Shown here: positions 9-39,221 of the stretch, one piece after another
Layout: each line of letters begins with the position of its first letter
Numbering within the stretch: position 1 is the stretch's first letter
Origin: Candidatus Eiseniibacteriota bacterium
Lineage (GTDB): Bacteria > Eisenbacteria > RBG-16-71-46
Assembly (NCBI GenBank): GCA_043720995.1
Contig: JAYSRO010000445.1
Span: forward strand, 1-47,497
Length of the DNA stretch: 47,497 nt
Direction of reading: 5' to 3'
Position numbers and translations under genes: made by a program
Notes under the pieces: generated by a model
Seen by the model: the letters and a program-made list of their open reading frames with translations, nothing else
What the model was told of the DNA's origin: nothing
Database searches by the model: none

Positions 9-2336
9 ATGCCCATCTGCCCGATGGCCGGCGAAAGCTTCGAGGCCCATGTTCGCGCGCTCCATGGCGACCTCACATCGGTTCGCTTTTGGCTCAGCGA
101 CGGCGGCACGAGTGCGATCGACGCCGCGATTCTCGAACGTAGCGGTCCATATGATATTTGGTCTGCATCGATACCGGTGACCGTCTCGGGCTACCCTTCC
201 TATTACATCGAAGTCCACGACGGGGCCGTGCTCGCCTACCTGAGCACGGGCGGCATCACGGACACACCTCCGGTCGACGGCGGCTTCGCGCTGGACTTCA
301 CATCGCTCTCGCACGCGCCGCTGGGCGCCACACCGGTGCACCCGAGCGGGGCGGTGTTCCGGGTTTGGGCGCCCAATGCCTCGAGCGCCACGCTGCGGGG
401 CCAGTTCAACGCTTGGGATCTCTCGGCTCCGATGACGCGTCTCGGCAACGATTACGTGATCTGGAATCCGAACGCCATCGCCGGCCAGCAGTACAAGTAC
501 TTCTTCAACGGCAGCCTGTGGCAGACCGACGCGCGCGCCCGCGCCGTCAATCCCGTCGAATTCATGAACGGAGTCATCGAGAATCCGGACGGCTACGCGT
601 GGCAGGCCCTGGACTTCCAGACGCCTGCACCGCAGGACCTCGTGATCTACCAGTTGAACGTTGACACGTTTGCCGGGCGCAACGATCCCTTTGGCACCGC
701 GCCTTTCCCGTCGCGCTTCGTCGACGTGGCGGCACGGGCCGGCCACCTGGCGGAGCTCGGCGTCAATGCCGTGATGCTGAATCCAGTGATCCAGTGGTGC
801 GACAACGTGTACGCCGGCTACACGCCCATGACCGTCTGGGCCGTGGACGCGCGTTACGGCACACCCGACCAGCTGAAGGCCATGATCGACACGTTCCACC
901 AGCACGGCATCGCCGTGCTCCTCGATCTGGTCTGGAATCATTTCGCCTGCGACCTACTCCAGAACTACGATGGCACCCAAATCTACTTCGCTACTCCGGC
1001 AGCGCAGACACCATGGGGTCCGCAGGCGGACTTCAATCGCGCGGAGGTCCAGGACCTTTTCATTCACAGCGCCTACATGTGGCTCGACGAATACCGCGCG
1101 GATGGCTTCCGCATGGACGCGGCCCGGGAGTTGGTCAATTCGCAGGCTCAGGGTTGGTCGCTTGCCCGTCGACTCAACGACGACGTGGATCGCCGCTGGA
1201 AGGATAAGTTCGTCCTCGCCGAGTCCAGCCCTATTCCCGCGCTCACGGATCCGAGTTCGAGCGGCGGTGGCGGGTTCGACGCCCAATACCATTTCGCGTT
1301 CGGGTCCCAGCTCCGGCAAGCGATGCTTGCCGCCGATCCCTCGATGGCGAGTGTCGCCGCCGCACTCGCGGGCGACGGGGCGTACGACTACGGCCAGAAG
1401 GGGCTGAACTTCCTCGAACTGCACGACGAGGTGTGGACCAACGGGCGAATGGTGACGCAGCTCGATCCGAGCGCGCCTCACGACGACCCTGCCGCCCAGG
1501 CGATGCTGAGACTCGGGCAAGGAATGACGATGCTGTCGCCCGGCATCCCGGCGATGTTGATGGGCTCGGAATGGCTCGAGGACACGCCATTCGGCAGCAG
1601 CAGCGCGACCTATCGAATCGACTGGTCGAAGCAAACAACCTACGCGCCGTTCTACCAGTACATGCGCGACCTGATCGCGCTGCGGCGCAACGACGGCATG
1701 CTGCGCGCTGGCGTCCCGCACCAAGTGTTCCACCTCGATGAGACCCACAACGTGATCGCCTTCAAGCGCGCGGACGGCACGGGGGGCCACACCGTGGTCA
1801 TCGCAAATTTCGGCGCCGCCGACCAGCACGCGCTTCGCCTCGGGCTGCCGTCGAGTGCGGGTTGGCGCGAGGCGCTCAACAGCCAGGACCTGCTCTACGG
1901 CGGCAACGGGCTCACGAACCCGGGAATGATCGTGCCCACCGCGGTGCCCGCGGACGGATTCCCCCAGTCGGCGGCCCTCGAACTACCCGCTCGGTCCGTG
2001 GTGGTCCTGCGTCCCGCCGCAGCCCTCGCAGCACCCGCATCGCCTACCGACGCCGGCGAACCGTTGCGGATCGTCAGCGCGGGCCCCAATCCGTCTGCCG
2101 GAGCGGTAACGCTCGTCTTCGCGCAGGGGCGACCCTCAGCGGCTCGCGTGACGGTGTTCGATCTGCATGGCCGCACCGTCGCGAGTCTCCTCGACAGGCC
2201 TCGGCAGGCCGGCCGGCACACCGTGGTTTGGGACGGTCACGGAGCCGACGGCGCACCTGTGTCACCGGGTATCTACCTGCTACGGGTCGACTCGGCCGGT
2301 GCGTCGGTGAGCAGGCCCGTGGCAATCCTCCACTAG
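9..2336 (+). CDS. GH13 alpha-amylase-family / 1,4-alpha-glucan branching-enzyme-like protein with CBM48 and C-terminal FlgD-Ig/T9SS-CTD-like domain; probably 5'-truncated by the window edge
   Basis: CBM48-type FRVWAPNA..LRGQFNAW; GH13 catalytic regions DGFRMDAA (nucleophile D), LAES (acid/base E) and ELHDEV; tail GPNP...VFDLHGRTV...WDG...PGIYLLRV. The frame is open to the window start and no signal peptide is visible. Confidence 0.85.
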   Translation: MPICPMAGESFEAHVRALHGDLTSVRFWLSDGGTSAIDAAILERSGPYDIWSASIPVTVSGYPSYYIEVHDGAVLAYLSTGGITDTPPVDGGFALDFTSLSHAPLGATPVHPSGAVFRVWAPNASSATLRGQFNAWDLSAPMTRLGNDYVIWNPNAIAGQQYKYFFNGSLWQTDARARAVNPVEFMNGVIENPDGYAWQALDFQTPAPQDLVIYQLNVDTFAGRNDPFGTAPFPSRFVDVAARAGHLAELGVNAVMLNPVIQWCDNVYAGYTPMTVWAVDARYGTPDQLKAMIDTFHQHGIAVLLDLVWNHFACDLLQNYDGTQIYFATPAAQTPWGPQADFNRAEVQDLFIHSAYMWLDEYRADGFRMDAARELVNSQAQGWSLARRLNDDVDRRWKDKFVLAESSPIPALTDPSSSGGGGFDAQYHFAFGSQLRQAMLAADPSMASVAAALAGDGAYDYGQKGLNFLELHDEVWTNGRMVTQLDPSAPHDDPAAQAMLRLGQGMTMLSPGIPAMLMGSEWLEDTPFGSSSATYRIDWSKQTTYAPFYQYMRDLIALRRNDGMLRAGVPHQVFHLDETHNVIAFKRADGTGGHTVVIANFGAADQHALRLGLPSSAGWREALNSQDLLYGGNGLTNPGMIVPTAVPADGFPQSAALELPARSVVVLRPAAALAAPASPTDAGEPLRIVSAGPNPSAGAVTLVFAQGRPSAARVTVFDLHGRTVASLLDRPRQAGRHTVVWDGHGADGAPVSPGIYLLRVDSAGASVSRPVAILH

Positions 2337-2373
2337 GCGCGAGAGCGCGTTCCCAGCACTCGCGGGGATTCGC

Positions 2374-2415
2374 ACGGGCGAGTGACGTTCTCGGGAATGA
2401 GAGTTCCTGTCCATC
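2374..2415 (+). repeat. 42-bp dispersed repeat, copy 1 (IS91 oriIS-like 3' end)
   Basis: ACGGGCGAGTGACGTTCTCGGGAATGAGAGTTCCTGTCCATC matches 8538-8579 at 35/42 positions by hand alignment. Confidence 0.7.
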
Positions 2416-2488
2416 GCCCCCGAGGACACTTTGGACCAGCTCGCCGTTGCGCTGCTGCAGCTCCCGGATCTTTTCCTCGCCCGCCCTG

Positions 2489-5212
2489 CTACTTCCGGTT
2501 CACCAGCTCACTGAAGCGCGTGTCCAGTTCGACGATCCCGGCGCTACTCGAGCGCGGCGGCGTGGAAAGGACATAGAATTTCTCGCCCGTCGCATCGACA
2601 TCCCAGCTGGCGACTTCGTGGGTGATGGATTTGACGGGCAGGATGAACAGTTCCTGGGGCGTGCCGGCGCGGAAGCCCGCCTGCGTGTCGATATCCACCG
2701 CCATGATGCTGGGCCGCGCCCATGATTCGTACAGGAGTTCCTTGCCGTTCTTGCTCCAGCGCGGCCAGATTCCGGGCTTGCTCGAAACCTGCCAGCGGCC
2801 GGGCACACCCGTCAGGCTGACGACCACAATCTGGTACGAGGGTTCCACCCCGACCACTCCGGCCATCCAGCGGCCGTCGGGTGAGACCGTGCCCTGGAAG
2901 ATCTTGAGCGTGCTATCGACCAGCGCCTGCGGGATGCGGTCCCCCGCCGCCGTGGGAATGGCGAAGTTGCTGCCGCCCAGGGAGAAGGCGACCAGTCGGC
3001 CATCCGCCATCCAATTCCTGAGCGAGACCGGCGGCCCCGCCGGCAAGGGTATGGAATCCGCAAGGCCCAATCCGTCGACAGCACCGATACGAACGATGCT
3101 GTGGCCGTCGGCGTAGCGGATCACGTACGCAAAGCGGCTGCCATCGGGCGACCACACCGGAGTGATCGCGCGATCCTCTGTGAACGTCAAGCGCGCCTCG
3201 GTGCCGCGAGCGAGATCGCGGATGTAAATGTCGCCGCCGCTGCGCAACGAAATGCGCGAGCGCTGGAACAACACCCTGGAACCATCGGGGGCGACGCGAG
3301 GATCAGCGATGGTGCCCGAGGCGATCGTCTGCCCCGTGGGCTTGCCGGTGCGGTCGGTTTCGAGGATCGGTGCCACAAAGTCATCGGTCTGGCGCGAGAA
3401 TGCGAGGATGCCGTTGTTCGAGACCGAGAAGTGTCCCTGCGCCCCGCCGATGCGGATCTGGTCGGCGAGCGTGACGGGCTCGCCCGTCAATTTGGCAGCG
3501 CCCAGATCCAGCTTCTGCGCCAGCAGCGAGGTGCCGCGCACGAACAGAACCCAGCCGCCGGGACCGTATTCCACGCGGCCATCGGAGTGACCGATCACTT
3601 TGGAGTCGAGCGAGCCCAGCTTGCCGAGGCGGATGTTGGAGTTGCCGCCGTTCTGCGTGTTGCCGATGAACAGGAAGTGCTCGCCGTCCGGCAGGAAGCA
3701 CGGCCAGGCGCTGCCGATTTCACCCTTGGCGCGGTCGATGCGCGAGGCAGGCTTGAGCTCGCCGCCGCCAGCAGGGACCACCAGCAGCGAATCGGTGAAC
3801 TTGCCGTCCATCAGGATGAAACCCTTCGAGCCCCAACTCAGGTCGCTGCCCGCTGCCGCGCACACCGTCACCGGCGAGCCGCCCGCGATCACGACACGCT
3901 GGAGCTTCTGCTCCTTGACGAACGCCACTTCGTTTCCGTCGGGAGACCAGTACACCCGCGCCGTACGTTCGGTGCCCGGGATGGGGTGCATGTCGATCTG
4001 GTTCATGGGCCGCACATACGCGGTGGTGACGTTCGTGGAATCGACGGCCTCGACCAGCAGGAACTTGCCGTTCGGTGAGACGCGGGGCCAGAACATCTGG
4101 AAAGCTTCCGGAATGGGCGTGAGCCGGAACCGCGCCGCGATCGGCGGTTCGCTCGGGCGCAGCATCGCCCAGGCGATCGCGCCCACTGCCAGCACGCCGG
4201 CGAGAGCCGCGACGCCCCAGGCGAGCTTGGTGTTGCCGCCGCGCGCGTGCGATGCCGCGACGGCCGCCGCCACCTGCGATTGCATCACGCTCGTGCTCGA
4301 CAGCCCCGCCCCCTCGGCGATGCCCTGCAGGTGCAGGCGGATGTCGTGCGCGGTCTGGATGCGCTCTTCCGGATCCTTGGCGAGGCAGTTGCGGATCAGC
4401 CGGTCGATACCCGCAGGCGGACCGCCGAGCGTACTCGCGCCCGAGGCACCCGAGGGTGCTTCGCCCACCGGCGCCGGTTCGCGCTCGAGGATCGCCGCGA
4501 TCAGTGACGCCTGGCTGCGGCCTTCGAACGCGCGGCGGCCCGTGGCCATTTCGTACAGGACACAGCCGAACGCCCAGATGTCGCTGCGCACGTCGGCTTC
4601 CTTGCCCTCGAGTTGCTCGGGCGCCATGTACTGGAACGTGCCGAGCAGGGAGCCCTCGGTCGTCAACGCGGGCGCCACGGTCGGCGACTGCGACAGTCCC
4701 GCCATGGTGATGCTGCCCCCGGCAGCGCCCCCGGGGGCCGCGACGCGAGACAGCCCAAAGTCCATGAGCTTGGCGCCATTCTTGGTGAGCATGACATTGC
4801 CCGGCTTCAGGTCGCGGTGCACCACGCCCGCGCGATGCGCGCGGTCGAGCGCGTCGGCGATCTGCGTGGCGTAGCGCAACAGTTCCGCCGCCGGCAGCGG
4901 CCCGCGCTGCAGGCGCTCGGCCAGTGTGCCGCCCTCGATCAACTCCATCACGATGAAGTCGACTTCCCCTTCGCGCCCCACGTCGAACAGCATGCAGATG
5001 TTCGGGTGGTTGAGCGACGAGATCGTCTTGGCCTCGCGCTCGAAGCGCGCGCGCACTTCCGGGTTGTCGGACAGATGGACCGGCAGCACCTTGATGGCGA
5101 CATCGCGCCCCAACCGCGTGTCACGGGCGCGATACACTTCGCCCATACCGCCAGCGCCAAGCGGAGTCGAGACTTCGTAGGGACCGAGTCGGGTACCGGG
5201 ATTGAGGGTCAT
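2489..5212 (-). CDS. Hanks-type Ser/Thr protein kinase with TM helix and TolB/PD40-like beta-propeller
   Basis: LGAGGMGEVY, VAIK, HRDLKPGN, DFG, GTFQYMAPE, DIWAFG; hydrophobic LAWGVAALAGVLAVGAIAWAML; repeated (W/V)SPDG blades. Confidence 0.95.
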   Translation of the reverse strand: MTLNPGTRLGPYEVSTPLGAGGMGEVYRARDTRLGRDVAIKVLPVHLSDNPEVRARFEREAKTISSLNHPNICMLFDVGREGEVDFIVMELIEGGTLAERLQRGPLPAAELLRYATQIADALDRAHRAGVVHRDLKPGNVMLTKNGAKLMDFGLSRVAAPGGAAGGSITMAGLSQSPTVAPALTTEGSLLGTFQYMAPEQLEGKEADVRSDIWAFGCVLYEMATGRRAFEGRSQASLIAAILEREPAPVGEAPSGASGASTLGGPPAGIDRLIRNCLAKDPEERIQTAHDIRLHLQGIAEGAGLSSTSVMQSQVAAAVAASHARGGNTKLAWGVAALAGVLAVGAIAWAMLRPSEPPIAARFRLTPIPEAFQMFWPRVSPNGKFLLVEAVDSTNVTTAYVRPMNQIDMHPIPGTERTARVYWSPDGNEVAFVKEQKLQRVVIAGGSPVTVCAAAGSDLSWGSKGFILMDGKFTDSLLVVPAGGGELKPASRIDRAKGEIGSAWPCFLPDGEHFLFIGNTQNGGNSNIRLGKLGSLDSKVIGHSDGRVEYGPGGWVLFVRGTSLLAQKLDLGAAKLTGEPVTLADQIRIGGAQGHFSVSNNGILAFSRQTDDFVAPILETDRTGKPTGQTIASGTIADPRVAPDGSRVLFQRSRISLRSGGDIYIRDLARGTEARLTFTEDRAITPVWSPDGSRFAYVIRYADGHSIVRIGAVDGLGLADSIPLPAGPPVSLRNWMADGRLVAFSLGGSNFAIPTAAGDRIPQALVDSTLKIFQGTVSPDGRWMAGVVGVEPSYQIVVVSLTGVPGRWQVSSKPGIWPRWSKNGKELLYESWARPSIMAVDIDTQAGFRAGTPQELFILPVKSITHEVASWDVDATGEKFYVLSTPPRSSSAGIVELDTRFSELVNRK

Positions 5213-5524
5213 GGTGCGGAGAATCTACAGGGTGAGGGTGTCGTCCGGCTAGGCCCCGCGCATGGGCGAGGTGTGTCGTCAGAGCCGGCGGCGGATTGGC
5301 CCGCGCTGCTTGCTCGCAGGCGGCGCTACGGGGTCAGCGTCGAGAGATATGCCGCCAGCGCAATCATGTCGCCCCGCGAGAGCGCGGCAACGCTGCCGAC
5401 GCCCGCAGCCAGACGTACTGGCCATCGCTGCATGTTCAGGCTCCGGAATGGACGTCCTGCGCGGCCGGCAACGATGCGCTCACCGCATCCCGCGCCGCCG
5501 CGCGCGTCGCAACGCACAACACGG

Positions 5525-5590
5525 TTCATCACCGAGCTAGCGGTGATACGCCGCATCATCGACCACCTTGAGCGCGGCCCGGTCGATGCG
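5525..5590 (+). mobile_element. Possible remnant of the C-terminus of an IS91-family (Y2 rolling-circle) transposase
   Basis: Intergenic frame reads FITELAVIRRIIDHLERGPVDA, resembling the FIT(E/D)xxVIxxILxHL tail of IS91/ISCR-like transposases. There is no start codon and no upstream transposase body. Confidence 0.45.
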
Positions 5591-5786
5591 CGCGCCAGAT
5601 GTTCGACCCGTGGCGGCGCCCGATTGCAATAACGTGATCGGCATGCGGATGGCGACCCCCGCCGGATCGGCCACTGCGGTGACACGGCAGCGATCGTGAA
5701 CTGTCTCGAAGTTCCGGCTCGAAGCGGTGGTCGCGGTCGTGTCGCACTGCTTCGGCAGGCCTCGCGACATGATGTGGATTCCCGCG

Positions 5787-8498
5787 ATGCGACTCACCCC
5801 GGGAACTCGCCTCGGCCCCTACGAAATCTTGGCCCCGCTAGGCGCAGGCGGCATGGGTGAGGTGTTCCGCGCCAAGGACACGCGGCTTGGCCGTGACGTG
5901 GCGATCAAGGTGCTACCCCAGCATCTCTCCGCCAACCCCGAGGTGCGCGCGCGCTTCGAGCGCGAGGCGAAGACCATCTCGAGCCTCAATCACCCGAGGA
6001 TCTGCACGCTGTTCGACGTCGGCTGCGAGGGTGAAACCGACTACCTGGTGATGGAATTGGTCGAGGGCGAGACGCTGGCAAAACGGCTGGCGAAGGGAGC
6101 GCTCCCTCCCGCCGACGTGCTCCGGCTCGGCGCGCAGATCGCCGAGGCGCTCGACCGAGCGCATCGCGCCGGCGTGATCCACCGGGACTTGAAGCCTGGG
6201 AACGTCATGCTCACCCGGTCCGGGGCCAAGCTGATGGACTTCGGTCTGGCGCGGGCGACGGGGCTGACAGGACCCGCGGGTGCGAGCGCCCTGACGGCGG
6301 CGATGACCCAATCGCCCACGATCGCTGCGCCACTCACGGCCGAGGGCACGATCGTCGGCACGTTCCAGTACATGGCGCCTGAGCAGTTGGAGGGCAAGGA
6401 GGTGGACACGCGCAGCGACATCTGGGCGTTGGGCTGCGTGCTGTACGAGATGGCAACCGGCCGCCGCGCGTTCGAAGCCGAAAGCCAGGCCTCGCTGATC
6501 GCCGCGGTCATGAAGACCGAGCCGGCGCCCATGAGCACGCTCCAGCCCGTCACGCCGCCTGCGCTCGAGCGCATCGTGCGCCGCTGCCTCGCCAAGTCTC
6601 GCGACGAGCGCTTCGAGAGCGCGGGCGATCTGGCGTTCGCGCTCGAGTCGGTGGCCGAGTTCTCGCAAGGTCATGGCGATGCAGGCACGTTGTCGCGAGA
6701 TCTGTCCGCGGCTTCAGGTGCGAACGCGCCCACAGCGCGCCGCGCAAGCGGGTTACGCGAAGCCGCCGCGTGGGTCGCCGCTGTTGTTGCACTCACCGCA
6801 TTCCTCTGGGTGCGCAAGCATGCACCCGCCGAGCCCGAGACGCCGGTCGTGCGGACACACATCGAAACGCCCCCTGGCGAGGCGATCGTCGTGGGCGGTT
6901 ATCCCATCGTGGTTTCACCGCAGGGTGACAAGCTTGCGTTTGTCATGGCTGGCGTCTCGGGGTATCGCACCGTCGTCCAGCGGATGAGCGAAGTCGGCGT
7001 GGGCATCCAAGTCGCCAGCGGGTCGCTCAAGAATCTTGCGTTCTCGCCCGACGGAAGCGAACTGGTGTATTCCGACGGTTTCGACGTGCGACGCATCTCC
7101 GCGGATGGCGGACCGAGTCGCGGGATCACGCCCCTCGGCAAACGCCGGATCTCCGGACTCGCCTGGGCAGGCGATGGCACCATCTTGATCGGCACCGAGA
7201 ACGGCCTGTTCGCGGCGCCCGCCGGCGGTGGCCCCGCGACGCCCCTCGGCGACACCACCGCGGTGGATGGCGCTTCGGACCTGGCGCTGCTGCCCGACGG
7301 CAAGACGGTGCTGGTGCGCAGCGGCCAACACGCGCCGAAGGCGACGATAGTGGCCATCTCGCTCCGGACGAAACAGGTCACCGGCATCGGGCTTGCGGGT
7401 GCGCGCGCACCGCTGGGTGTGATCGACAATCGACTCGTCTACCTGGATGAGAAGGGCGATGTGACGGCCATTGGCTTCGACGCCAAAACGCTGCATGTTC
7501 GCGGCGAACCGGTCCTGCTCGAAAGCAACGTGGATGGGGTCGGCCTCTCGCGCAGCGGGACACTCGCCTACCTGCCGAGCGCCAGCATGTCGCGGAGGGT
7601 GCTCACCGGTGGCGGAACCGAAGTGGCATTGCGCAGTGAGCCCGCCAACTACGAGACGCCACGTCTCTCACCCGACGGACGACGGATCGCCGTGTCCATC
7701 CAAGCCGACGGCGGCTGGGACATCTGGGTGCTCGACCGCGCGAGCAACACGTTCACGCGACAGACGACGGCCGGTATCAATCGCGCACCGGAGTGGTCAC
7801 CGGACGGCAAGCGCATTCTCTACAAGGCCATCACGGGCGGAACGATCAGCACGAAGGGATTCAGCACCGGACGCACCCCGATCCTTTGGGCGCCTGCGGA
7901 CGGCAGCCAGCAAGCCGAGACGCTCTACGTGGCCGATGCGGCCGTGAATGAGGCGGTCCTCTCGCCCGACCAGCGCTGGCTCGTGTTGCGCACCGACCCG
8001 ACCCCGCCGTATCCGCGCGATATCTTCGCAGTCGACCTCAAGGGCGACCGCAAGCTCCAGCCGATGGCGACGGGCCCGTCTTCGGAGATGATGCCGAGGC
8101 TGTCGCCCGATGGTCATTGGCTCGCGTACCAATCGGACGTGAGCGGGCGCAACGAGGTCTTCGTGCGGCCGTTCCCGGGCGAGGGCGCGCGCGTGCAGGT
8201 CAGCGACAACGGCGGCGGCGAACCCATGTGGGATCGCAAGGGACGCATGCTGTACTACCGTGCGTCCGAGGGCATCACCGTCGCGACCGTGACGAGCGGC
8301 GCCGTGCTGTCGGTTGGCGCGCGCAAGCTCGTACTGCGCGACACGGACCCGAGCGATCCGTCGCATCAGTCTTACGACGTCGCGCCCGACGGCACGCACT
8401 TCCTGATGCTGCGCCACGAGGGTAATGAGCGTAGGGCGATCGTGGTACACAACTGGCGGCGCGAACTGCGCGAAAAACTGCGGAAGACCGGGGAGTGA
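5787..8498 (+). CDS. Hanks-type Ser/Thr protein kinase with TM helix and TolB/PD40-like beta-propeller (paralog of 2489-5212)
   Basis: Start set at ATG 5787 (MRLTPGTRLGPYE) by alignment to the paralog; same kinase motifs; FSPDG/LSPDG/WSPDG repeats. Confidence 0.95.
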   Translation: MRLTPGTRLGPYEILAPLGAGGMGEVFRAKDTRLGRDVAIKVLPQHLSANPEVRARFEREAKTISSLNHPRICTLFDVGCEGETDYLVMELVEGETLAKRLAKGALPPADVLRLGAQIAEALDRAHRAGVIHRDLKPGNVMLTRSGAKLMDFGLARATGLTGPAGASALTAAMTQSPTIAAPLTAEGTIVGTFQYMAPEQLEGKEVDTRSDIWALGCVLYEMATGRRAFEAESQASLIAAVMKTEPAPMSTLQPVTPPALERIVRRCLAKSRDERFESAGDLAFALESVAEFSQGHGDAGTLSRDLSAASGANAPTARRASGLREAAAWVAAVVALTAFLWVRKHAPAEPETPVVRTHIETPPGEAIVVGGYPIVVSPQGDKLAFVMAGVSGYRTVVQRMSEVGVGIQVASGSLKNLAFSPDGSELVYSDGFDVRRISADGGPSRGITPLGKRRISGLAWAGDGTILIGTENGLFAAPAGGGPATPLGDTTAVDGASDLALLPDGKTVLVRSGQHAPKATIVAISLRTKQVTGIGLAGARAPLGVIDNRLVYLDEKGDVTAIGFDAKTLHVRGEPVLLESNVDGVGLSRSGTLAYLPSASMSRRVLTGGGTEVALRSEPANYETPRLSPDGRRIAVSIQADGGWDIWVLDRASNTFTRQTTAGINRAPEWSPDGKRILYKAITGGTISTKGFSTGRTPILWAPADGSQQAETLYVADAAVNEAVLSPDQRWLVLRTDPTPPYPRDIFAVDLKGDRKLQPMATGPSSEMMPRLSPDGHWLAYQSDVSGRNEVFVRPFPGEGARVQVSDNGGGEPMWDRKGRMLYYRASEGITVATVTSGAVLSVGARKLVLRDTDPSDPSHQSYDVAPDGTHFLMLRHEGNERRAIVVHNWRRELREKLRKTGE

Positions 8499-8537
8499 TT
8501 CCAGGGACCGACGAATACTCCTGGGTCAGGTCGCGGG

Positions 8538-8579
8538 ACGGGCGAGCGGCGCTTCCGGGAATGAGCGTTCCTATCCATC
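8538..8579 (+). repeat. 42-bp dispersed repeat, copy 2 (IS91 oriIS-like 3' end)
   Basis: ACGGGCGAGCGGCGCTTCCGGGAATGAGCGTTCCTATCCATC; ends in TTCCTATCCAT and overlaps the stop codon of the convergent gene at 8571. Confidence 0.7.
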
Positions 8580-9554
8580 CCCTGCACCGGCGCCATCGGG
8601 GGAGCCCCCCGTCGCCTGTCGTTTCCGCATCAGCACTTGGCTCCCCTCTTCCGAGTACTCAACCGTGTCCATAAGTTGGTTGATCAGGAACACACCGCGC
8701 CCACCCGGCTTCGCGAGGTTGGCGCTATCGAGCGGGTCAGCTACGGCCGTCGCGTCGAAGCCCGCTCCCGGATCACGAACAACGATCACTATTTCCCCGG
8801 TAGCGTCGAACGTGACACAGCATTGCAGTTGCTTGCTCGGATCGTTCTTGCATCCGTGACGAATCGCATTTGAGAGCGCCTCACTCAGCGCCAGTTCGAC
8901 TTTCACCACCTCATCGTCGGACCACTGCTTACGCTCGAGCAACTCGCTAACGCCTCTGCTCACTTTCACGATGTTCGTCGGATCTGCGTGAATGATGATG
9001 TTGAGTTCGCAGGTGGAACAGTAGGGAACCAGGGCGCCGAGCCTCTCGATGCCCTCGAGCGCGAGGCTCAACTCCGCGAGATTGCGTCGCAACTCGAGTT
9101 GAGCTTCCACCTGGCGCCGCAGCGCTTCGAGCGCTTCCTTCTGGTCCTGGGCGAGCGTGCGAGGCTGGCGATCGATGACGCAAAGCGTGCCGAGTGCATC
9201 CCCTTCGCGGGTCAAGAGGGGAGCACCCGCATAGAAGCGGATGTGCGGGTCCTGGAGCACGAGCGCGTTCTCATGGAAGCGCGTGTCGTTCAACGTGTCG
9301 GGCACGATGAAGAGACCTGGCTGCTGGATCGCGTGGGCACAGAATGAAACGTTGCGTGCGGTCTCATTGACCTTCAGGCCGACGCGCGACTTGAACCACT
9401 GGCGGTTCTCGTCGACCAGGCTGATCAGGGCGATCGGTGTGCCGCAGATCTGCGAGGCCAGCAGCGTCAGGTCATCGAATGCCTGCTCGGGATCCGTGTC
9501 GAGGATGCGGTACTTGGTCAAGGCTTTGAGTCGACGGGCTTCGTCGGCGACCAC
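8571..9554 (-). CDS. GAF domain + RsbW/SpoIIAB-like anti-sigma factor kinase (HATPase_c_2)
   Basis: GAF: ILDTDPEQAFDDLT...ISLVDENRQWFKS...FYAGAPL...GTLCVID. Kinase: ELALSEALSNAIRHG, VRDPGAGFD, GGRGVFLINQLMD. GTG start at 9554 follows a purine-rich RBS. Confidence 0.88.
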   Translation of the reverse strand: MVADEARRLKALTKYRILDTDPEQAFDDLTLLASQICGTPIALISLVDENRQWFKSRVGLKVNETARNVSFCAHAIQQPGLFIVPDTLNDTRFHENALVLQDPHIRFYAGAPLLTREGDALGTLCVIDRQPRTLAQDQKEALEALRRQVEAQLELRRNLAELSLALEGIERLGALVPYCSTCELNIIIHADPTNIVKVSRGVSELLERKQWSDDEVVKVELALSEALSNAIRHGCKNDPSKQLQCCVTFDATGEIVIVVRDPGAGFDATAVADPLDSANLAKPGGRGVFLINQLMDTVEYSEEGSQVLMRKRQATGGSPDGAGAGDG

Positions 9555-9798
9555 GGCCCCCCCCTTCTGCCCAGGTTCCAAGGCGATACGTCTGGTCGGG
9601 GTCTGGGACGATTGAGACGGTCCGCGACCTTGGCCCCCCTTGTCAGGGCCGTATGCTACTCCCGCTTGCCCGCGGCAAGGAAGGCGCGAGATGGCGCGCG
9701 TCATCGCGTCGACCACCTTTTCACCTCCGTGGCCTTGGTCAGCCCTCACCGGGGAACGCGATCGTTTTTGCAGGCAGCCCCTTACTGGAATCGAGATC

Positions 9799-12924: not shown

Positions 12925-14163
12925 ATGACTGCAGACACATTCGATCAATTGCTGTCCAAGTATGCCGACGTCATCGTGCATATCGGGCTGAACTTGCGCA
13001 AAGGCCAGCGCCTGCTCTTGCGCGGCAATCTCGACGACGCGCCGCTGATGCGCAAAGTGGCGGAGTTCGCCTACAAGGCCGGAGCGGTCTACGTGGAGCC
13101 GATCTACACCGACGAGCGCATCACGCGCATCCGCTTTGAACACGCCGATCCAGCAACGATCGACGAAGTACCCAACTGGATTCTGGCCCGCTACGAAGAG
13201 TACTACGAGCGCATGGATGCTGAGCTGGCGATCACTTCCGGGGATCCCGAATTGCTCTCAGGTATCGATCCCGGATTGATTGCGGCGAACCGCAAAGCAT
13301 CGATGAAGAGAGTGGAACCGCTCCGCAGGTTCGAGAACTGCAACAACTGGTGCGTTGTGGCAACCGCAACGCCCGCATGGGCGAAGCGAGTGTTCCCGAA
13401 CCTCCCGGCGAGTGAAGCGATCGCGAAATTGTGGAACGAGATCTTTTTGAGCTGTCGCATTTACGATGCCGACCCCGTTGCAGCGTGGAGCACACATCGC
13501 GCAAACCTCGAGCGATACCGCGACCACCTGAATCTCCAGCGATTCACCGCGCTTCACTACACCGCCCCCGGCACGGACCTGACCATCGGTCTGCCGGAGA
13601 AGCAAAAGTGGCAAGGCGCGCAGGCCGAGTACAAGAACGGCATCACCGGCATTCCAAACCTGCCCACCGAAGAGGTGTTCACCACCCCACATACGGAGCG
13701 CGTCAACGGAACGGTCTCAGCCACCATGCCATTGAACATCTCCGGTGCGCTCGTTGAGGAGTTCCGGCTCACTTTCAAAGACGGCAGGGCCGTGAACGTT
13801 TCGGCGAAGAGTAACCAGCAGACTCTCGAGAAGCTTATTGCGACCGACGAGAATGCATGCCGGCTCGGCGAAGTGGCGCTGGTGCCACACAGTTCGCCGA
13901 TCAGCCAGCGCGGCATTTTGTTCTACAACACGCTATTCGACGAGAACGCCTCCTGCCACATCGCGCTCGGCAACTCTTATCGCGAGTCAATCGTCGGCGG
14001 TGAAGACATGAGCGAAGAAGAATTCAAAGCCTGCGGCGGAAACAAGAGCTTGATCCACAATGACTTCATGATCGGCTCGAACCAATTGGATATCGATGGG
14101 ATCAGGGCCGACGGTTCCCGTACAACTGTGATGCGGCAAGGCGAGTGGGCGTTGGATGCATGA
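12925..14163 (+). CDS. Aminopeptidase, peptidase M29 family (AmpS/PepS/aminopeptidase T type)
   Basis: PNLPTEEVFTTP, RLGEVALVP, FYNTLFDENASCHIALGNSY, NKSLIHNDFMIGS; AAGGAG RBS. Confidence 0.95.
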   Translation: MTADTFDQLLSKYADVIVHIGLNLRKGQRLLLRGNLDDAPLMRKVAEFAYKAGAVYVEPIYTDERITRIRFEHADPATIDEVPNWILARYEEYYERMDAELAITSGDPELLSGIDPGLIAANRKASMKRVEPLRRFENCNNWCVVATATPAWAKRVFPNLPASEAIAKLWNEIFLSCRIYDADPVAAWSTHRANLERYRDHLNLQRFTALHYTAPGTDLTIGLPEKQKWQGAQAEYKNGITGIPNLPTEEVFTTPHTERVNGTVSATMPLNISGALVEEFRLTFKDGRAVNVSAKSNQQTLEKLIATDENACRLGEVALVPHSSPISQRGILFYNTLFDENASCHIALGNSYRESIVGGEDMSEEEFKACGGNKSLIHNDFMIGSNQLDIDGIRADGSRTTVMRQGEWALDA

Positions 14164-14267
14164 GCGCGCTCTTCGCGCCACGAGCCCAGACCGCCCCGCT
14201 ACCCACCGTCCCCTCGAGCTACCTCGACTACTCCGGTCGCGACGATGTCCTCTCGGGCGGCGTGAAG
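14160..14267 (+). pseudogene. 5' fragment of a proline-iminopeptidase paralog (diverged direct repeat of 16454-16554)
   Basis: MSALFAPRAQTAPLPTVPSSYLDYSGRDDVLSGGVK versus TTLFAPRAHAATAPAIPSSYLDYSGHDDILSGGVK; 101 bp colinear; similarity stops abruptly after GGCGTGAAG. Confidence 0.8.
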
Positions 14268-14300
14268 TGGAAGTTCGATCGCGCGGTAACGGTCAGGCCG

Positions 14301-17535: not shown

Positions 17536-19218
17536 CTACTTCGCGAACACCACGCGAACGGTGGTCGACCCCGCACGCGCGGCGGCGCGGACGAAATACA
17601 GCCCTGGCGGGATCGCCTGTAGATCGCCGAACTCCATGGAGTGGCTCCCGGCGCCTCCCACGCGCTGCGTGCGCAATTTGCGACCGGCCACGTCGAGCAA
17701 CTCGACCGTGGCCTCCGCCTCGTCCGGCAGCGTCAATTCGAATGCCACTGAGCCGCGCGCGGGATTCGGGTGTGGAGTGGAAAGCGCGAGCCGCAGGCCC
17801 AGCGGGCTCTGTGCCTCGACCCCGTTCAGGCCGATGGTGAGACTCCCTGACTCGCTGGTCACTCCTCCACAGGCACTGGCCACAACCACATCGTAGCTGC
17901 CCACGTCCAGCGGAGTGATATTCGCGATCCTCAGCGTGTCGTCGTCCGCTCCGGAAATATTGCCCCCGTTCAAGAGCGGTGCGAGATTTCGACGCCACTG
18001 GTAATTGAACGGGCCGGCCGCAGCCACGAGCACGGAGAACGCGACATTGCTGCCAGGAGGCGCGGTGCGAACTTCCGGCTGCCGCAGGATGGGCGGGATT
18101 GGTGGATCGCACCGCGTGGTGCCCACCGTGACTGAGGCGGGCAAGTTGGCCGGAAAGACCCACTGGTTGGTGGCCTGGCTCAACGGCACCGGCAGTGAAA
18201 GCCGAAGGCCCAGGACTGACTGCCCAGTGGCTCGTGACGCCTGAACGAATTGGAGGAACGGCGACGCCTGCTGTGCCAGCGGATCGATCACCACTTCCTC
18301 GATCCACGCCGTGTAGGCGGTGTCCGGGAAATCGCCCATCAGCATCCGCAGGTGGCCACTCAGCGCAATCAGGTTGCCCTGGGTCCAGATGGAAAAGTCG
18401 GTTGCGGTATCCGCTTCGCCCATGAACAGCGGATGCGTGGGCCCCATCTGGTTGCCCGAATAGACAAGCGTCGGGAAGTGGAGCGTGGCACCCTGCATGA
18501 ATGGATCAGTGAACGGCACATTCAGGTGGGAGAATGAACCGAGAAAAAAGCCATCGAGCGCCAACCGCTTGGTGCCCGGATCGAAATTCGAATTGCTGTT
18601 ATTGGTCGAGCTCTTTTCATCTTTTGGCTTGGGCGGATTGAGCAGGGTGCCGATTTTCGTGCACCACGCGGCCTGTTTCGCTGCGTTGGTCCCGTGCTCG
18701 GTCTCGCTATCGTACAGTTCCTGCATGTCGTCGCACTTCTTCTTCATCTCGGCTTCGATCTTGTTGGCCTTGGCCATCGCATCGCTGGTCGCGGCCGCCG
18801 GGGTCGCGCCGACACCTTCAACGCCCTTCAATGCCTTCTCCAGTTCGCGCGCCCAGTACTCGCTGATGTCGAAGTGATATTGCTCGTGCTCGAGGAGCGC
18901 AGCAGTTTGGGTGCCGGGCTTCACGCCCGACGCTTTCTTGTCCATGATGGCCGTGACCTTCACATCCTTGAGCTTGCACTTCCACGTCGTGCCGCTCCCG
19001 GTGGGAGTGTCGGTCCCCCAACTCGAGCTGGTGCCTGTGGTGATCTCGGCACTCTCGGTCCCCGTAGGGGCAGGTCCCAGGAAGTCCCCCCACTTGATCT
19101 TGTGGTACGCGCTACTCGTTTCGGTAGAGAAAGCGGGACCGGGCACCACGGACGTTGCCAGAGCGACAGCAAGCACTGCGAGCGCGATCAGGTCGGATGG
19201 GTAGCGCGGCGGCTTCAT
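17536..19218 (-). CDS. Secreted protein: DUF922-like putative Zn protease + Ig-like domain + CTD
   Basis: Signal peptide; KIKWGDFLG, LLEHEQYHFDISE (HExxH), YDSETEHG....Q..W typical of DUF922; Ig motif YQWRRN...TLRIANITPLDVGSYDVVV; tail PNPARG...LLDVAGRKL...PGLYFVR. Start at ATG 19218. Confidence 0.82.
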   Translation of the reverse strand: MKPPRYPSDLIALAVLAVALATSVVPGPAFSTETSSAYHKIKWGDFLGPAPTGTESAEITTGTSSSWGTDTPTGSGTTWKCKLKDVKVTAIMDKKASGVKPGTQTAALLEHEQYHFDISEYWARELEKALKGVEGVGATPAAATSDAMAKANKIEAEMKKKCDDMQELYDSETEHGTNAAKQAAWCTKIGTLLNPPKPKDEKSSTNNSNSNFDPGTKRLALDGFFLGSFSHLNVPFTDPFMQGATLHFPTLVYSGNQMGPTHPLFMGEADTATDFSIWTQGNLIALSGHLRMLMGDFPDTAYTAWIEEVVIDPLAQQASPFLQFVQASRATGQSVLGLRLSLPVPLSQATNQWVFPANLPASVTVGTTRCDPPIPPILRQPEVRTAPPGSNVAFSVLVAAAGPFNYQWRRNLAPLLNGGNISGADDDTLRIANITPLDVGSYDVVVASACGGVTSESGSLTIGLNGVEAQSPLGLRLALSTPHPNPARGSVAFELTLPDEAEATVELLDVAGRKLRTQRVGGAGSHSMEFGDLQAIPPGLYFVRAAARAGSTTVRVVFAK

Positions 19219-19487
19219 GGGAGAATTCTCCTGATGGGATCCCGGCCGATCACGGGGAATGCGTTGGCGGAGGAGGGCGGGTTCGCGCAGGCGTGGATTG
19301 CCTTTCGCGACGCGCTCCATCGGCCGTTGGTCTGCGCGTAAGGATAGGCCCGGCCAAAGGGCGAGCCGAGAACTTTCTGGGTCAGGCGATCGAGATGGCC
19401 AGGCTCGCTACTGCTGTCCGTTGTCCCCAAATGACTTGTGGGCGGGGACTCCGACTTCCCCGCCTCCCGCCTTCCGGCCCGCTGGCC

Positions 19488-30227: not shown

Positions 30228-33200
30228 CTAGTGGAACACGACGATCTTCTTGTTCGCCACCCGTTCGCCCGCGCGCAGCGTGACGAAGTAGGCGCCCGGC
30301 GGCAGCGCGCGGTTGCTTGAACCGCGGCCGTCCCAGCGAACCGTGTTCAGGCCGGCTTCGGCCTGACCGTCGAGCAGCGTGCGGACGCGCTGTCCGCTGA
30401 GGTTGTAGATGTCCAACCTCACCGCACCACTCTTCGGCATCGCGTAGCTGATCACCATTCCGGAGTTCGTCGGGTTCGGGGCGGTTGCATAGATCCCGAA
30501 GTCCAATCCTTCCGTGTTGATCGGCACGCCCGTGTTGCGCCACAGACACGTGGCGGCGCAGACGTCGATCACGCCCGGCTCCCCGTCACATGTGAAGGTG
30601 ACGGTGAAGCAGCACGAGACGCCGCCCGGCATGTTGTTCGCGGCGGCGACGCTGATCCAGCCCGTCCAGTTCGGCGGCACCGGATTCGGCGCGGGCGTGA
30701 AGTCCTCGTTCAGCAAGGTTGCGCTGAATCCAGGACACAGCCCGGCGATGGTCCACGGCGAGCCCGTGGTGCTGTTGCAGAAGATCAACGTGTGCACGTG
30801 GCTCGAACCGAAGCCCGGCCGCACCAGCAGGCTCGTGAAGTGGCGATTCACCTGGCCCACTCCACCAGCTCCTGCCCAGTTGATGTCCACGTTGCCCGAC
30901 CAGCTCGTATCCGGCGGACACGGTGAGCCAGGTTGCGGCCCACCACCGGGGAACTGCTGCTGCGGTTGCGGCGGCAGCTGCGACAACGGCACCTCGAAGA
31001 AGACGTCGAAGAAGCTCGACGGCTGGATCGGGGGCACGGTGAACTGACCAATCGAACCGAAGTTCGGGGCGAACGCGCCGAACGGCTGCGAGTTCATGGT
31101 TCCCGAAACCGGCACGGTCGGCTGCGAAGCACTCGGGTTCGTCCAACGGATGTGGAAGCGCACCGCACCGATCGCGGGCACTGCCGTCCAGTCGACGGTT
31201 CCCGGCACCGGGTTCACCGGCGTCGGACCGCACTGGCAGGTGATCGCGCACAGATCGATCACGCCGGGCACGCCGTCGCACAGGAACGTCACCTTGAAGC
31301 AGCAGGTGTCGGGCACTGGGGTGCCCGCCGCGGCCGTCACGCTGATCCAACCCGTCCAACCCAACGGCACGGGATTCGGCGCCGGCGAGTAGTCTTCGTT
31401 CTGCAGCGTGGCGCTGAAGCCCGGGCACAGCCCCGTGATCGTCCACGGCATTCCGGCCGGATCCGCGCACACCAGCGACTTGATGTGAATGAGCGATGCG
31501 CCGCCACCCGGACACACCGTGATGTCGCCGATGTGGTAGTTGGCCTGCCCACCTCCTGCGGGTCCGTTCCACACCACGTCGACGTTGCCGTTCCAGTGCG
31601 TGTTGGGAGGACACGGTGCACCAGTGCCTGGGCCACCCTGCGTGGGCGGATTCGGCGGCAGCGCCGTCAGCGGCATGTCGAGGAACACATCGAAGAAGCT
31701 GTGCGCCTGCATCGCCGGTACATCGAAATGCCCGATCACGCCGGAGTTGGGCAAGAACACGCCGAACTCCTGCGAGCTCATCTGGCCACTCACGGGCGCC
31801 GAGACGACGTCGTTCGGATTGCTCCAAGTCTGGTGGAACTGCACCGTGCTGGTGCCCGCAAGCGTCGTCCACGTCACCGGAGACGGCACCGGAGCCGGTG
31901 CCGTGTGACACTGGCACGTGGTCGCGCAGACGTTGATCACGCCCGGCACGTTGTCGCACAGGAACGTGACGCTGAAGCAGCACGTCACCGGCACCGGCGT
32001 CGCCGCCGCGGCCGAGACGCAGATCCAACCGGACCAACCCGGCGGCACCGGATTCGGCGCTGCCGAATAGTTCTCGTTGACGAGTGTCGCGCTGAAGCCC
32101 GGACAGAGCCCAGCGATCGACCACGACGACGGTGTCCCGGACGGACAGTTCACTTCCCGCACGTGGATGTAGGTGTTGCCCGAACCCGGGCAGACCTGCA
32201 GGTCGCCGAAGTGATAATTCACCTGGGCGTTGCCCGCCGTGCTCGTCCAGTTCAGGTCGACGTTGCCTGCCCAGCTCGTGTCAGGAGGACACGGCCCAGC
32301 AAGCGTGGACATTGGCGATCCCTTGCCTCCGGCGACGACGTTCGAGGACGGTCCGCCGCTGATCGCCGCACTGGGCGGCAACTGGGTGAGCGGCACGTCG
32401 AAGAACACGTCGAAGAAACTATTGGGCTGGATCGGGGGAATGTTGAGCTGCCCGATAGACCCGAAGTTCGGCGCAAACACCCCGAACGCCTGCGACATCA
32501 TCTGGCCTGTCGCGGCCGCGGTGGCAAGCGTGGTGCTCGGGTTCGTCCACTTCACATGGAAGCGGATGTCCGTCGAGCCCGGCACGTTGGTCCAACCAAT
32601 CGTGCTCGGTTGCGGGTTCGGTCCCGGCGTCGGAGCGCACTGGCACGCGAAGGTGCAGATGTCGATCGTGCTGGAGACGCCGGCGCACGTGAACGTCACG
32701 CCGAAGCAACAGCTCGTACCGACCGCGCCAGCAGCGGCCTGGATGCTGATCCATCCCGACCAGCCGACCGGGATCGGATTCGGCGCCGGCGAGAAGTCCT
32801 CGTTGACGAGCGTCGCGGTGAATCCCGGGCACAGACCCGCGATCGTCCACGGCATCGGCGAGGTGCAGTTGCTCGGACGGAAGTGAATGAATGAGGGCGC
32901 ACCACCCGCGCACGTCAGCAGGTCGGAGTAGTGCTTGTTGACCTGGCCACCCTGCGGGGTGCCGGACCACTGGATGTCGACGTTACCCGCCCAGTTCGTA
33001 TCGGGAGGGCACGTCGCCTGCGTCTGAGCGCCGCCACCGTAGGTTGCGTTGGCGATCTGCTTCAGGCCGCCACCGCCGGGAACGATCTTCTGCGGACTCG
33101 GCGGTAGGGAGGAGAGCGGCACTTCGATGAACACATCGAAGAAGCTGTTCGGCTGCAGCGGCGGCACGTTCATTTGGCCGATGAGCCCCAAATCCGGCAG

Positions 33201-37505: not shown

Positions 37506-39221
37506 ATGCGGGCTCCACTCCCCACCGATGAGCGGGAACGCTTGGCCGCTCTGCGCGCCTATCACGTCCTGGATACCGCGCCGGAACAGAGTTTCGACGA
37601 CCTGACTTTGCTGGCTTCCCAGATCTGCGGCACGCCGATCTCCGCGATCAGCCTCGTCGATGAGCAACGGCAATGGTTCAAGTCGATCATCGGGCTTGAC
37701 GTTCGCGAGACCCCTCGCGATCAGGCGTTCTGCGCCCACACGATCCTTGATTCCAGTCAATTGCTCATTGTGCCCGACGCCACGCGCGACCCCCGGTTCT
37801 CCGACAATGCCCTGGTGCTTGGGGAACCGAACATTCGCTTCTACGCTGGAATGCCGCTGGTGACGTTTGCGGGTGAGGCGCTGGGTTCACTATGTGTCAT
37901 CGACCGGACCCCGCGCGTGCTGAGCCCCGGTCAACTTGAAGCCCTCCGCGTGCTCGGCCGTCAGGTCGTTTACCAGTTCGAGCTGCGGCGCGCCCACGAT
38001 GCGCTGCACAGGACGGTCGGACAGCTACGCCAGACCGAGGCCGACCTGCGGAATGAGCAGTACAAGCAATTGGAGCTGAGGGACCAGTTGGTCTCGCACG
38101 TGTCACACGAATTGAGATCCCCGCTCACGGTGATCTACCAGTACGCAACCATTCTTCACGAAGGACTCGCGGGGCCGGTCAACGAAAGGCAGCGCGAGTT
38201 CCTTGACATCACGCTCAAGAACGCCCTGCAACTCCAGCGAATGATTGGCGACCTGATTGATATGACTCGAGCCGGCACCGGCAAGCTGGCGCTGGATCGC
38301 CGCCGTGTCTCGATGCGCGAAATCGTCAGCGAGATTGCGGGTTCGTTGGCCCCAGTCGCAGCGGCCAGTGGTATCGAACTGCGAACGATATTCGACGCTA
38401 CACTTCCAGACGTCTTGGGTGATCCCGGCCGCCTACGGCAAGTGATCGTCAATTTGGTCGACAACGGCATCAAGTTCACACCCACGGGTGGGAGCATTAC
38501 CGTCCGGCTCGCAGTAGACTCGGAGGAACCGGGCGTTGCGAGAGTGACCGTCGAAGACACGGGTAGCGGAATTTCTGTGGAGTGCCGAGAGCACATCTTC
38601 GATCGCCTCTACCAGGTCAACAAGCGCTCCAAAGTGAATCGCAAGGGCTTGGGGCTCGGCCTGTACCTTTGTCGTGAGTTGGTGACTCGCCAGGGCGGCC
38701 GGCTTTGGGTCGAGAGCGAACCCGGACGAGGGAGCCGATTCCATTTCACAGTACCGCTGTTTGATCTCGCCACCCTGCTGGCACCAGTGCTCACGCCGGA
38801 CAATTTTCGGTTTCGCTCGCTCGCACTATTGCGAATTCAGGTCTTGCCGCCCGCCGAAGGGGGCGCCGTAGACACCCACGCGGATCCCATCGGCGCGGCG
38901 TGGAACACCGTCACGGCTTGCACCAATCCCGCCATGGACATCGTCCTACCCCGGCTGGGAGAAGGCGACCAGCCAGAAACGATCATCGTGGTGGCGATGG
39001 CGGACGAGAGCGGCGCGAAGATTTTGGAACAGCGTATCGAGCAGCAACTCGGGGCCTGTGCGGAAGCCAAGGCGAACGGCTACGCTTGGGAGCAGCTCGC
39101 CACGACGCTGCTGGTGCTGCCCGACGAGCGCCTTCAAACAGCCAGCGGCAGCGTCGCCGCCTCAATCGCAGCCATGATCGACCCGCATCTCGACAACACG
39201 TCATGGGCAAAGGCTGCATAA
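37506..39221 (+). CDS. GAF-sensor histidine kinase with C-terminal extension
   Basis: GAF domain similar to 8571-9554; H-box VSHELRSPL; N-box NLVDNGIKF; DTGSGI; GLGLGL; SEPGRGSRFHF. Confidence 0.93.
   Translation: MRAPLPTDERERLAALRAYHVLDTAPEQSFDDLTLLASQICGTPISAISLVDEQRQWFKSIIGLDVRETPRDQAFCAHTILDSSQLLIVPDATRDPRFSDNALVLGEPNIRFYAGMPLVTFAGEALGSLCVIDRTPRVLSPGQLEALRVLGRQVVYQFELRRAHDALHRTVGQLRQTEADLRNEQYKQLELRDQLVSHVSHELRSPLTVIYQYATILHEGLAGPVNERQREFLDITLKNALQLQRMIGDLIDMTRAGTGKLALDRRRVSMREIVSEIAGSLAPVAAASGIELRTIFDATLPDVLGDPGRLRQVIVNLVDNGIKFTPTGGSITVRLAVDSEEPGVARVTVEDTGSGISVECREHIFDRLYQVNKRSKVNRKGLGLGLYLCRELVTRQGGRLWVESEPGRGSRFHFTVPLFDLATLLAPVLTPDNFRFRSLALLRIQVLPPAEGGAVDTHADPIGAAWNTVTACTNPAMDIVLPRLGEGDQPETIIVVAMADESGAKILEQRIEQQLGACAEAKANGYAWEQLATTLLVLPDERLQTASGSVAASIAAMIDPHLDNTSWAKAA

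Follow-up and report, generated by a model that had tools for sequence, protein, structure and literature searches.

What is the 42-nucleotide (nt) motif that stands behind two different genes of an Eisenbacteria contig, and did it bring those genes there? The stretch analysed, here called the window, is 47,497 nt long and is contig C445 of a metagenome-assembled genome (G000; 3.71 Mb in 578 contigs, 66.6% G+C, 75.8% complete) assigned to Candidatus Eiseniibacteriota. An earlier note on this DNA had read the motif as the oriIS end of an IS91-type insertion sequence and the two genes, a GH13-type glycoside hydrolase gene and a Ser/Thr kinase gene (kinase 2), as possible cargo moved by rolling-circle transposition. 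The first half of that proposal is borne out here and the second is not. With good confidence, what the 42-mers mark is the final 45-70 nt of an IS91-family element at its oriIS (3′) end, left behind as solo 5′-truncated relics, and the GH13 gene and kinase 2 are neighbours of these relics, not demonstrated cargo. Elements of this kind are already known; what is new is the relics of an environmental IS91 lineage.

A repeated terminus in the window

Both 42-mers lie on the plus strand, at 2374-2415 and 8538-8579, 37 nt past the GH13 stop and 39 nt past the kinase 2 stop, and are identical at 35 of 42 positions, just as the earlier note described them. Each closes with TTCCT(G/A)TCCATC. Searches of the window with a 24-nt degenerate core and with the 42-nt pattern, allowing up to 3 mismatches, returned only these two sites, and 100 dinucleotide-preserving shuffles gave 0 matches; a repeat scan pairs the same two copies over 45 nt at 82%. 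The genome-wide profile scan that had been proposed as a check (nhmmer) found exactly seven copies in 3.71 Mb, with E-values from 5e-17 to 4e-8 and the next match at E=0.6. They are distributed over four contigs: two in the window, two on C21, two on C39 and one on C128, the last 30 nt past the 3′ end of moaE. Direct pairs of ends occur on three of these four contigs, spaced by 6,164 nt (window), 891 nt (C21) and 987 nt.

When aligned, the seven copies share at most about 70-80 nt leftward, and their similarity stops abruptly just after ...CCTATCC; it is this sharp, one-sided edge that makes the motif look like the terminus of an element. The left limits of the solo copies vary (about -45, -62, -69 and -80 nt from the end), and because the last 45 nt are only 47-80% identical among the copies in this genome, they are old.

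Relic 1 (2344-2412, plus strand; profile match 2344-2414, E=5.4e-14) retains the last ~69 nt. It starts 8 nt past the GH13 stop and has its right edge, set by the alignment of the seven copies, at ...GTTCCTGTCC|ATCG; 42 nt of it are 81% identical to the transposase-linked end on C21. The stop codon of kinase 1, on the other strand, lies 76 nt to its right. Relic 2 (8532-8576, plus strand; profile match 8507-8578, E=6.8e-12) keeps the last ~45 nt and ends ...GTTCCTATCC|ATCC, and its homology to the C21, C39 and C128 ends spans only 36-37 nt. Both relics sit between convergent genes, and relic 2 overlaps one of them. The minus-strand open reading frame to its right, encoding GAF and HATPase_c_2 domains (8571-9749), terminates ...GAT|GGA TAG at 8571-8579, so that its final Gly codon and TAG stop are the last 6 nt of the relic. 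One gene of the window thus draws its stop codon from a transposon end, and, to judge from the sequence, insertion of that end replaced the native 3′ end of the GAF-HATPase gene.

Transposase tails beside the same ends

The motif is physically tied to transposase remains in this genome. With a full-length transposase relative (P0001) as query, tblastn detected fragments of one transposase type on C39, C21 and C432. On C39, a tail at 18139-18465 (residues 274-383, 81% identity) is followed by the end at 18604, and a second tail at 19301-19474 by the end at 19591. The C21 fragment (14090-14284; residues 377-441, 86% identity) is the true C-terminus, and the end comes 301 nt on, at 14585. Three of the seven copies are accordingly still joined to transposase-tail fragments and four are solo. 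Homology between the C21 and C39 ends covers 139 nt and reaches into the flank, GTTC on C39 and CTTC on C21. On C432, a related end (...GAAATTCCTATCC) lies 276 nt past a minus-strand tail at 497-297.

Matches to the Pfam family Y2_Tnp (PF04986) were an intact protein of 397 residues on C277 and a partial one on C39. The C277 transposase (locus L014, 1972-3165) belongs to a distant subgroup, 24% identical to P0001, and no similar end was found within 2.4 kb downstream of it. A second family of IS91-type ends (...GCGAAAGGAAATTCCTATCC) is present on the minus strands of C432 (~18-160) and C460 (~4300-4407), 90% alike over 108 nt. Both copies lie at contig termini, which suggests a multi-copy element that broke the assembly.

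The window itself holds a further transposase remnant. The peptide ahead of kinase 2, on the same strand, that the earlier note had likened to an IS91-type transposase tail is indeed one: window 5252-5596 (plus strand) matches residues 370-444 of the query at E=0.002 in a genome-wide tblastn search and at E=1e-07 when the region alone is searched. The relic proper (5285-5596) corresponds to residues ~380-444 of 455 and consists of two collinear in-frame blocks, residues 380-394 and 421-444 (PAADWPALLARRRR and FITELAVIRRIIDHLERGPVDARA), between which the zinc-finger stretch is degraded. Its DNA also resembles the degraded C21 transposase, at 91% over 44 nt (5284-5327) and 85% over 74 nt (5523-5596). 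The homology ends at ~5600, and neither a spacer nor an oriIS was found after it. A Pfam search of the relic at E<=10 gave no transposase match, so it is visible only through a close full-length relative. Two solo ends and one transposase-tail fragment are thereby packed into 6.2 kb of the window.

This tail relic also varies between samples. Contigs from other samples (runs X2-X5) were compared with the window, contigs being a form of data that drops rare variants and none of these spanning the whole stretch. Those of X2 and X3 are without 5380-5569, a deletion of 190 nt between 9-nt direct repeats (GAGCGCGGC). Because the deletion is polymorphic between samples, the tail relic is still decaying in the population.

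The same end in related elements elsewhere

Relatives of the C39 tail comprise 34 full-length proteins of 349-530 residues, 62-81% identical to it; PF04986 is found in 34/34 and PF14319 in 33/34. The comparison was extended to 158 loci from public genomes and metagenomes that encode transposase relatives, of which 105 cover the transposase C-terminus (20 of them with less than 350 nt of sequence downstream). Of these 105 loci, 67 have TTCCTATCC, with at most one mismatch, in the 600 nt that follow the stop, in most cases between +200 and +290. Its reverse complement was found there in 0/114 and the motif itself in 600 nt upstream in 8/114. An extended end signature, searched in all 158 loci, gave 60 sense-strand and 0 antisense hits, and when the pattern was tightened, 65 of the 66 ends that could be identified were no more than 400 nt from the transposase stop.

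The exception is L053. Compared with the orthologous L048, L053 (4150-5821) has tnpA joined to a short end-like stretch (TATCCCTCCTATCCC), after which come ~1.3 kb without a Pfam match and then a 305-nt 5′-truncated copy with its own end.

The elements of the closest transposases, 66-74% identical to P0001, end ...GCGCATGAGAGTTCTTATCC, ...CTCTGAGAGTTCCTATTC and ...GTATGCGAGTTCTTATCC, which is the same word as the AATGAGAGTTCCTGTCC of the window; a closest-relative terminus was also read as ...CTGAGAGTTCCTATTC. Among the closest full-length relatives, the terminus takes the form ...ATGAGAGTTC(C/T)TAT(C/T)C and stands ~260-285 nt past the stop. Multi-copy elements measure 1,780-1,815 nt, and those of Gemmatimonas type have a long palindrome at their start and terminate ...TTCCTATCC(CG). 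Conservation between subfamilies is limited to the terminal 16-20 nt: searched with the nhmmer profile built from the seven copies, the 158 related loci gave nothing at E<=0.01, and ends there were found by direct reading and regular expressions. The window-type end was not found in relatives with many kinase paralogs (0/60, or 0/59 without the unpublished genome G038; 18-mer with at most one mismatch), and its exact 17-mer occurs in 0 of 205 other genomes of the phylum (204 without G038). The literature searched held no paper on IS91-family elements of Gemmatimonadota and none on ori-only fragments.

Relation to known rolling-circle elements

The terminal core given in the earlier note, TTCCTATxC, is correct: canonical IS91-family, ISVsa3 and ISCR1 elements terminate ...TTCCTATAC(C). 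In plasmid records, an E. coli plasmid IS91-family element, ISVsa3 and ISCR1 end ...ACTTCCTATAC, ...TTCTTCCTATAC and ...ACTTCCTATACC, about 230 nt past the stop, and the terminal core of the window copies is GTTCCT(G/A)TCC. The identification of the motif as an IS91-type oriIS end is carried by the same-strand Y2_Tnp tails on C39 (two) and C21, by the 67 of 105 loci elsewhere, and by this core common to canonical elements. As regards the identity of the motif, all three outcomes named beforehand as fatal to the idea (no IS91-family element with this end, no further copies, and synteny unbroken across the motif) are contradicted.

Like IS91, IS801 and IS1294, the lineage has one transposase with Zn_Tnp_IS91 and Y2_Tnp domains, an end 200-300 nt past its stop, a terminal core TTCCTAT(C/A)C, two ends without inverted-repeat symmetry and a palindrome at the left end, and some of its copies are flanked by GTTC or CTTC. 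It differs from IS91 in that its transposase is only ~28% identical to the E. coli plasmid IS91-family protein, in that the window copies are solo 45-70-nt fragments with the flanks ATCG and ATCC, and in its hosts, which here are Gemmatimonadota/Eisenbacteria-type environmental bacteria. An IS91 lineage with a well-conserved ...TTCCTATCC terminus is thereby placed outside the clinical Proteobacteria, the group in which the family is usually studied.

The flanks and the secondary structure of the ends can be set beside what is described for IS91 in sections of PMC13181058. There, the target tetranucleotides are CTTG, GTTC and GTCC, with T at position 2 and no target duplication. The seven window-type ends are followed by GTTC (C39), CTTC (C21), ATCG and ATCC (window), ACTA, CACA and AGGG, and the related C432 and C460 ends by TTGG and TTCA. 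T stands at position 2 in six of these nine flanks and in 5/6 GAGTTCC-type ends elsewhere; for 11 of 15 the binomial P is 2e-6, a value computed after the boundary had been chosen. Of the 52 AAATTCC-type ends, 35 have G at position 2. The same sections describe one or two imperfect subterminal palindromes beside the cleavage site of IS91 oriIS ends, and a GGAAT-GAGA-GTTCC hairpin of 4-6 bp is predicted in five of six plus-strand copies here.

The core ...CTTCCTATAC(C) is also held in common with ISCR1 and ISCR2/ISVsa3. For the ISCR group, parts of PMC12772301 mention truncated remnants that keep oriIS beside genes and cite, for ISCR28, two sequential oriIS capturing a gene. This “sandwich”, a direct oriIS pair around one or more genes, has the same geometry as C21, L053 and, loosely, the window, a likeness of geometry only. 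In contrast to ISCR, the window is without resistance genes, integron context or an attached intact element, and there is no sign that the bracketed genes moved. A more distant parallel is the Helitron Helraiser: in the portions of PMC4778049 concerned, its rolling-circle transposition yields truncations and read-through, and truncated copies retain the initiation end, as they do here and in the complete chromosome discussed below (G066). Helitrons are eukaryotic, encode a helicase domain and start transposition from the 5′ end, so the parallel is a mechanistic analogy and not one of membership. The window copies also recall miniature inverted-repeat transposable elements (MITEs) in being short, non-coding, derived from an insertion sequence and intergenic. 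A MITE has both ends and a fixed length, whereas the window copies have one end and variable left limits, and with left limits that differ between the solo copies they are not a fixed-length MITE.

Truncation and decay

The most likely history begins with an element of ~1.8 kb, with a single Zn_Tnp_IS91 plus Y2_Tnp gene, of a type common in Gemmatimonadota and Eisenbacteria metagenome-assembled genomes. In the intact form its oriIS end would lie ~200-300 nt past the transposase stop. The HUH/Y2 transposase would nick just after ...TTCCTATCC, and strand displacement would then run leftward through tnpA to terIS; both steps are established for IS91 and extrapolated to the present lineage. In this genome the lineage now survives only as wreckage, with seven diverged end copies. 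The two window ends came to lie within or at the 3′ termini of convergent genes, where one of them now provides its neighbour's stop codon.

The solo ends are without tnpA and terIS, which marks them as 5′-truncated copies. They could have been truncated on arrival, by premature termination of rolling-circle transposition, a route that would always retain the initiation end, or they could have shrunk in place by deletion; for the two window copies either is possible and the two routes are not separable. Premature termination is a plausible source of solo ends, because ori-only copies are common in the lineage and because of what is reported for Helraiser and IS91. For the latter, sections of PMC13181058 state that transposition starts at the ori end, that the terminal 82 bp with the adjoining tetranucleotide are sufficient there, and that termination at terIS is error-prone. 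Shrinkage in place occurs too, as the 190-nt deletion inside the tail relic in X2 and X3 shows.

The complete chromosome G066 illustrates how common such copies are. It bears nine ends (L191-L199), six of them with a Y2_Tnp match upstream; the other three are 5′-truncated copies of 460 nt (100% identical to an intact copy), ~463 nt and ~650 nt, two of which start at the same internal position. Even one of the six transposase-linked ends, L199, is itself 5′-truncated, with 957 nt retained. The nine ends fall into three clusters (within 3.97-4.01 Mb and 4.36-4.41 Mb), each of uniform orientation (++++, -- and +++). Smaller fragments occur as well: in nine or more loci, a full element has additional terminal copies, 6-90 nt long, next to it. 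In L037, L052, L067, L082, L121, L136, L174 and L177, the last 6-90 nt are re-copied immediately after the full element or within 28 nt of it. Recurrent 5′-truncated copies and tiny terminal duplicates, with the ori end always kept, provide a testable pointer to premature termination in IS91-type transposition.

Alternative explanations and the question of cargo

A host function for the motif, such as a shared transcription terminator, a palindromic operator (GGAAT-N4-GTTCC) or a repetitive extragenic palindrome (REP)-like repeat between convergent genes, would suit the placement of both window copies between convergent genes, that of the C128 copy 30 nt beyond moaE, and the small hairpin predicted in five of six copies. 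It is very improbable all the same: the motif is tied to transposase tails both here and in the 67 loci elsewhere, a T-run is missing, a scan of 2200-8800 for terminators and sigma-70 promoters returned nothing at either motif, Rfam detected nothing in four loci at E<=1, and the genome has only seven copies, with the exact 17-mer found in none of the 205 other genomes of the phylum. By eye, the motif was also weighed as a group II intron, a tRNA-like or a sigma-54 feature; the transposase linkage led to these readings being dropped. Chance resemblance between two GC-rich intergenic stretches, for which the high G+C (66.6%) is the one argument, is refuted beyond any practical doubt by the 0 matches in 100 shuffles, by reversed-pattern controls that also gave 0, and by the profile E-values of the two copies (5e-14 and 7e-12).

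The more serious rival is the one proposed in the earlier note, namely that the motif ends gene cassettes mobilised in trans. Extended here to an ori-to-ori “sandwich”, it would have strand displacement run from a downstream solo oriIS to an upstream end copy or a terIS-like site, and the candidate cassettes are kinase 2 plus its end, the GH13 gene plus its end, the whole 2413-8576 segment, and the C21 cupin gene plus its end. In its fullest form, early-stopping rolling circles scatter ori-only fragments (6 to ~650 nt), direct pairs of these define ori-to-ori units that can be lifted in trans, and the 2413-8576 segment and the 891-nt cupin unit of C21 are or were such host-gene cassettes. An ori-to-ori unit of this sort would terminate at a second origin, as in rolling-circle plasmids, and the window segment would amount to a divergent kinase pair with a tnpA relic. 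We regard both the general idea and this fuller version as unlikely, though much about the locus would fit them. The genes sit on the side of the end that IS91 displaces; the sections of PMC13181058 on one-ended events report that the last 82 bp of the ori end suffice, that earlier reports put termination failure at 1-10% of events, and that about half of events are one-ended when tnpA is expressed alone; and parts of PMC12772301 cite a “sandwich-like structure” of two sequential oriIS for ISCR28. Direct ends bracket genes in the window (2412/8576, 6,164 nt) and on C21 (14585/15476, 891 nt, around a Cupin_2 gene), where the order in L012 (4024-5477) is degraded transposase, end, Cupin_2 gene and solo second end, and in L053 a 1.3-kb stretch of foreign DNA lies between two ends. 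The tnpA-tail relic directly upstream of kinase 2 is oriented as the end behind that gene, and kinase 2 is without an orthologue in the 40 family genomes searched, its C-terminal half having no match above 34% identity there. Against this, a terIS was looked for and not found: the window holds no match to the 5′ regions of the 10 closest relatives, its GH13 reading frame starts at base 9 so that the upstream sequence lies outside, and what lies upstream of kinase 2 is the tnpA-tail relic and not a left end. (Elsewhere in this genome, the sole match of these 5′ regions that resembles an insertion sequence is C146:135-243, from two of the 10 relatives.) The signature of a split element was not found either: neither the sequence past 5600 nor that preceding 8532 shows homology to the spacer. 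Neither gene occurs a second time together with its end in the assembly, and the nearest kinase 2 paralog is 70% identical at the protein level. Over their last 45 nt the ends are 47-80% alike, and the ~45 nt left in relic 2 fall short of the 82 bp used for IS91. Of the cognate transposase only fragments are assembled, the intact C277 protein being 24% identical to P0001. Contigs from other samples bridge both ends unchanged, with 0 differences over 1500-2770 and 12 over 7374-9380; X5 is uninformative, since none of its listed pieces covers 2270-2457 and depth falls to zero in the 8442-8708 bin. The 15 contig joints listed for these samples, out of 40, include none that is ori-to-ori. Clusters of uniform orientation, finally, also occur for plain copies in G066. 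No syntenic orthologous locus was found in which breakpoints could be compared: the gene order of three regions from G001-G003 has nothing in common with that of the window, and a 10-kb DNA query was swamped by kinase paralogs. With no terIS, no second gene-plus-end copy and no cognate intact transposase assembled, the claim that the GH13 gene and kinase 2 are cargo of transposase-less IS91 derivatives is not supported. Nor is the suggestion that such cassettes offer a route for the expansion of kinase and secreted-protein paralogs, since of 23 kinase loci and 3 GH13 loci just one each is near an IS91-type end, both being in the window; these ends provide no route for kinase-family expansion in the lineage.

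Several observations weigh against reading the motif copies as solo relics beside bystander genes. The tail relic, kinase 2 and the end follow one another in the same orientation within 3 kb (5285-8576), which is unlikely for independent random insertions, and this arrangement could be one rearranged element with kinase 2 inside. Direct end pairs on three of four contigs fit the sandwich model as well as they fit clustering. Fold energies of the 70-nt ends match those of shuffles (z from -1.66 to +1.30), and the hairpin has only 4-6 bp. The window flanks ATCG and ATCC, though they have T at position 2, are not among the IS91 insertion tetranucleotides given in the cited sections of PMC13181058. 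That the window ends are most likely inert is something we infer. Moreover, with the genome bin 75.8% complete and in 578 contigs, an intact cognate element may exist unassembled. The identification as decayed IS91-family remains nonetheless accounts for an intergenic repeat and for a pseudo-peptide, both of which a gene caller would either mis-call or leave without explanation.

Other features of the window

The GH13-type gene left of relic 1 (9-2336, plus strand; stop TAG at 2334-2336) encodes a protein with Pfam matches to CBM_48, Alpha-amylase, Alpha-amylase_C and FlgD_ig. Between the two relics lie kinase 1 (2489-5212, minus strand; Pkinase 8.4e-50) and kinase 2 (5727-8498, plus strand; Pkinase 2.5e-48; stop TGA at 8496-8498), the latter flanked by the tail relic and relic 2. 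Both are Ser/Thr kinases with PD40 repeats, and they are head-to-head paralogs: their kinase domains form an inverted repeat (4463-5206 and 5793-6536) of 744 nt that is 75% complementary. The domains of the GAF-HATPase gene were assigned from Pfam and the list of open reading frames. Part of that gene (9326-9512) forms a 187-nt inverted repeat with 37560-37746, 73% complementary, which may reflect a paralogous gene. Farther along, 30527-33290 holds four tandem units of ~680-730 nt, 62-80% alike, that probably encode a repeat protein.

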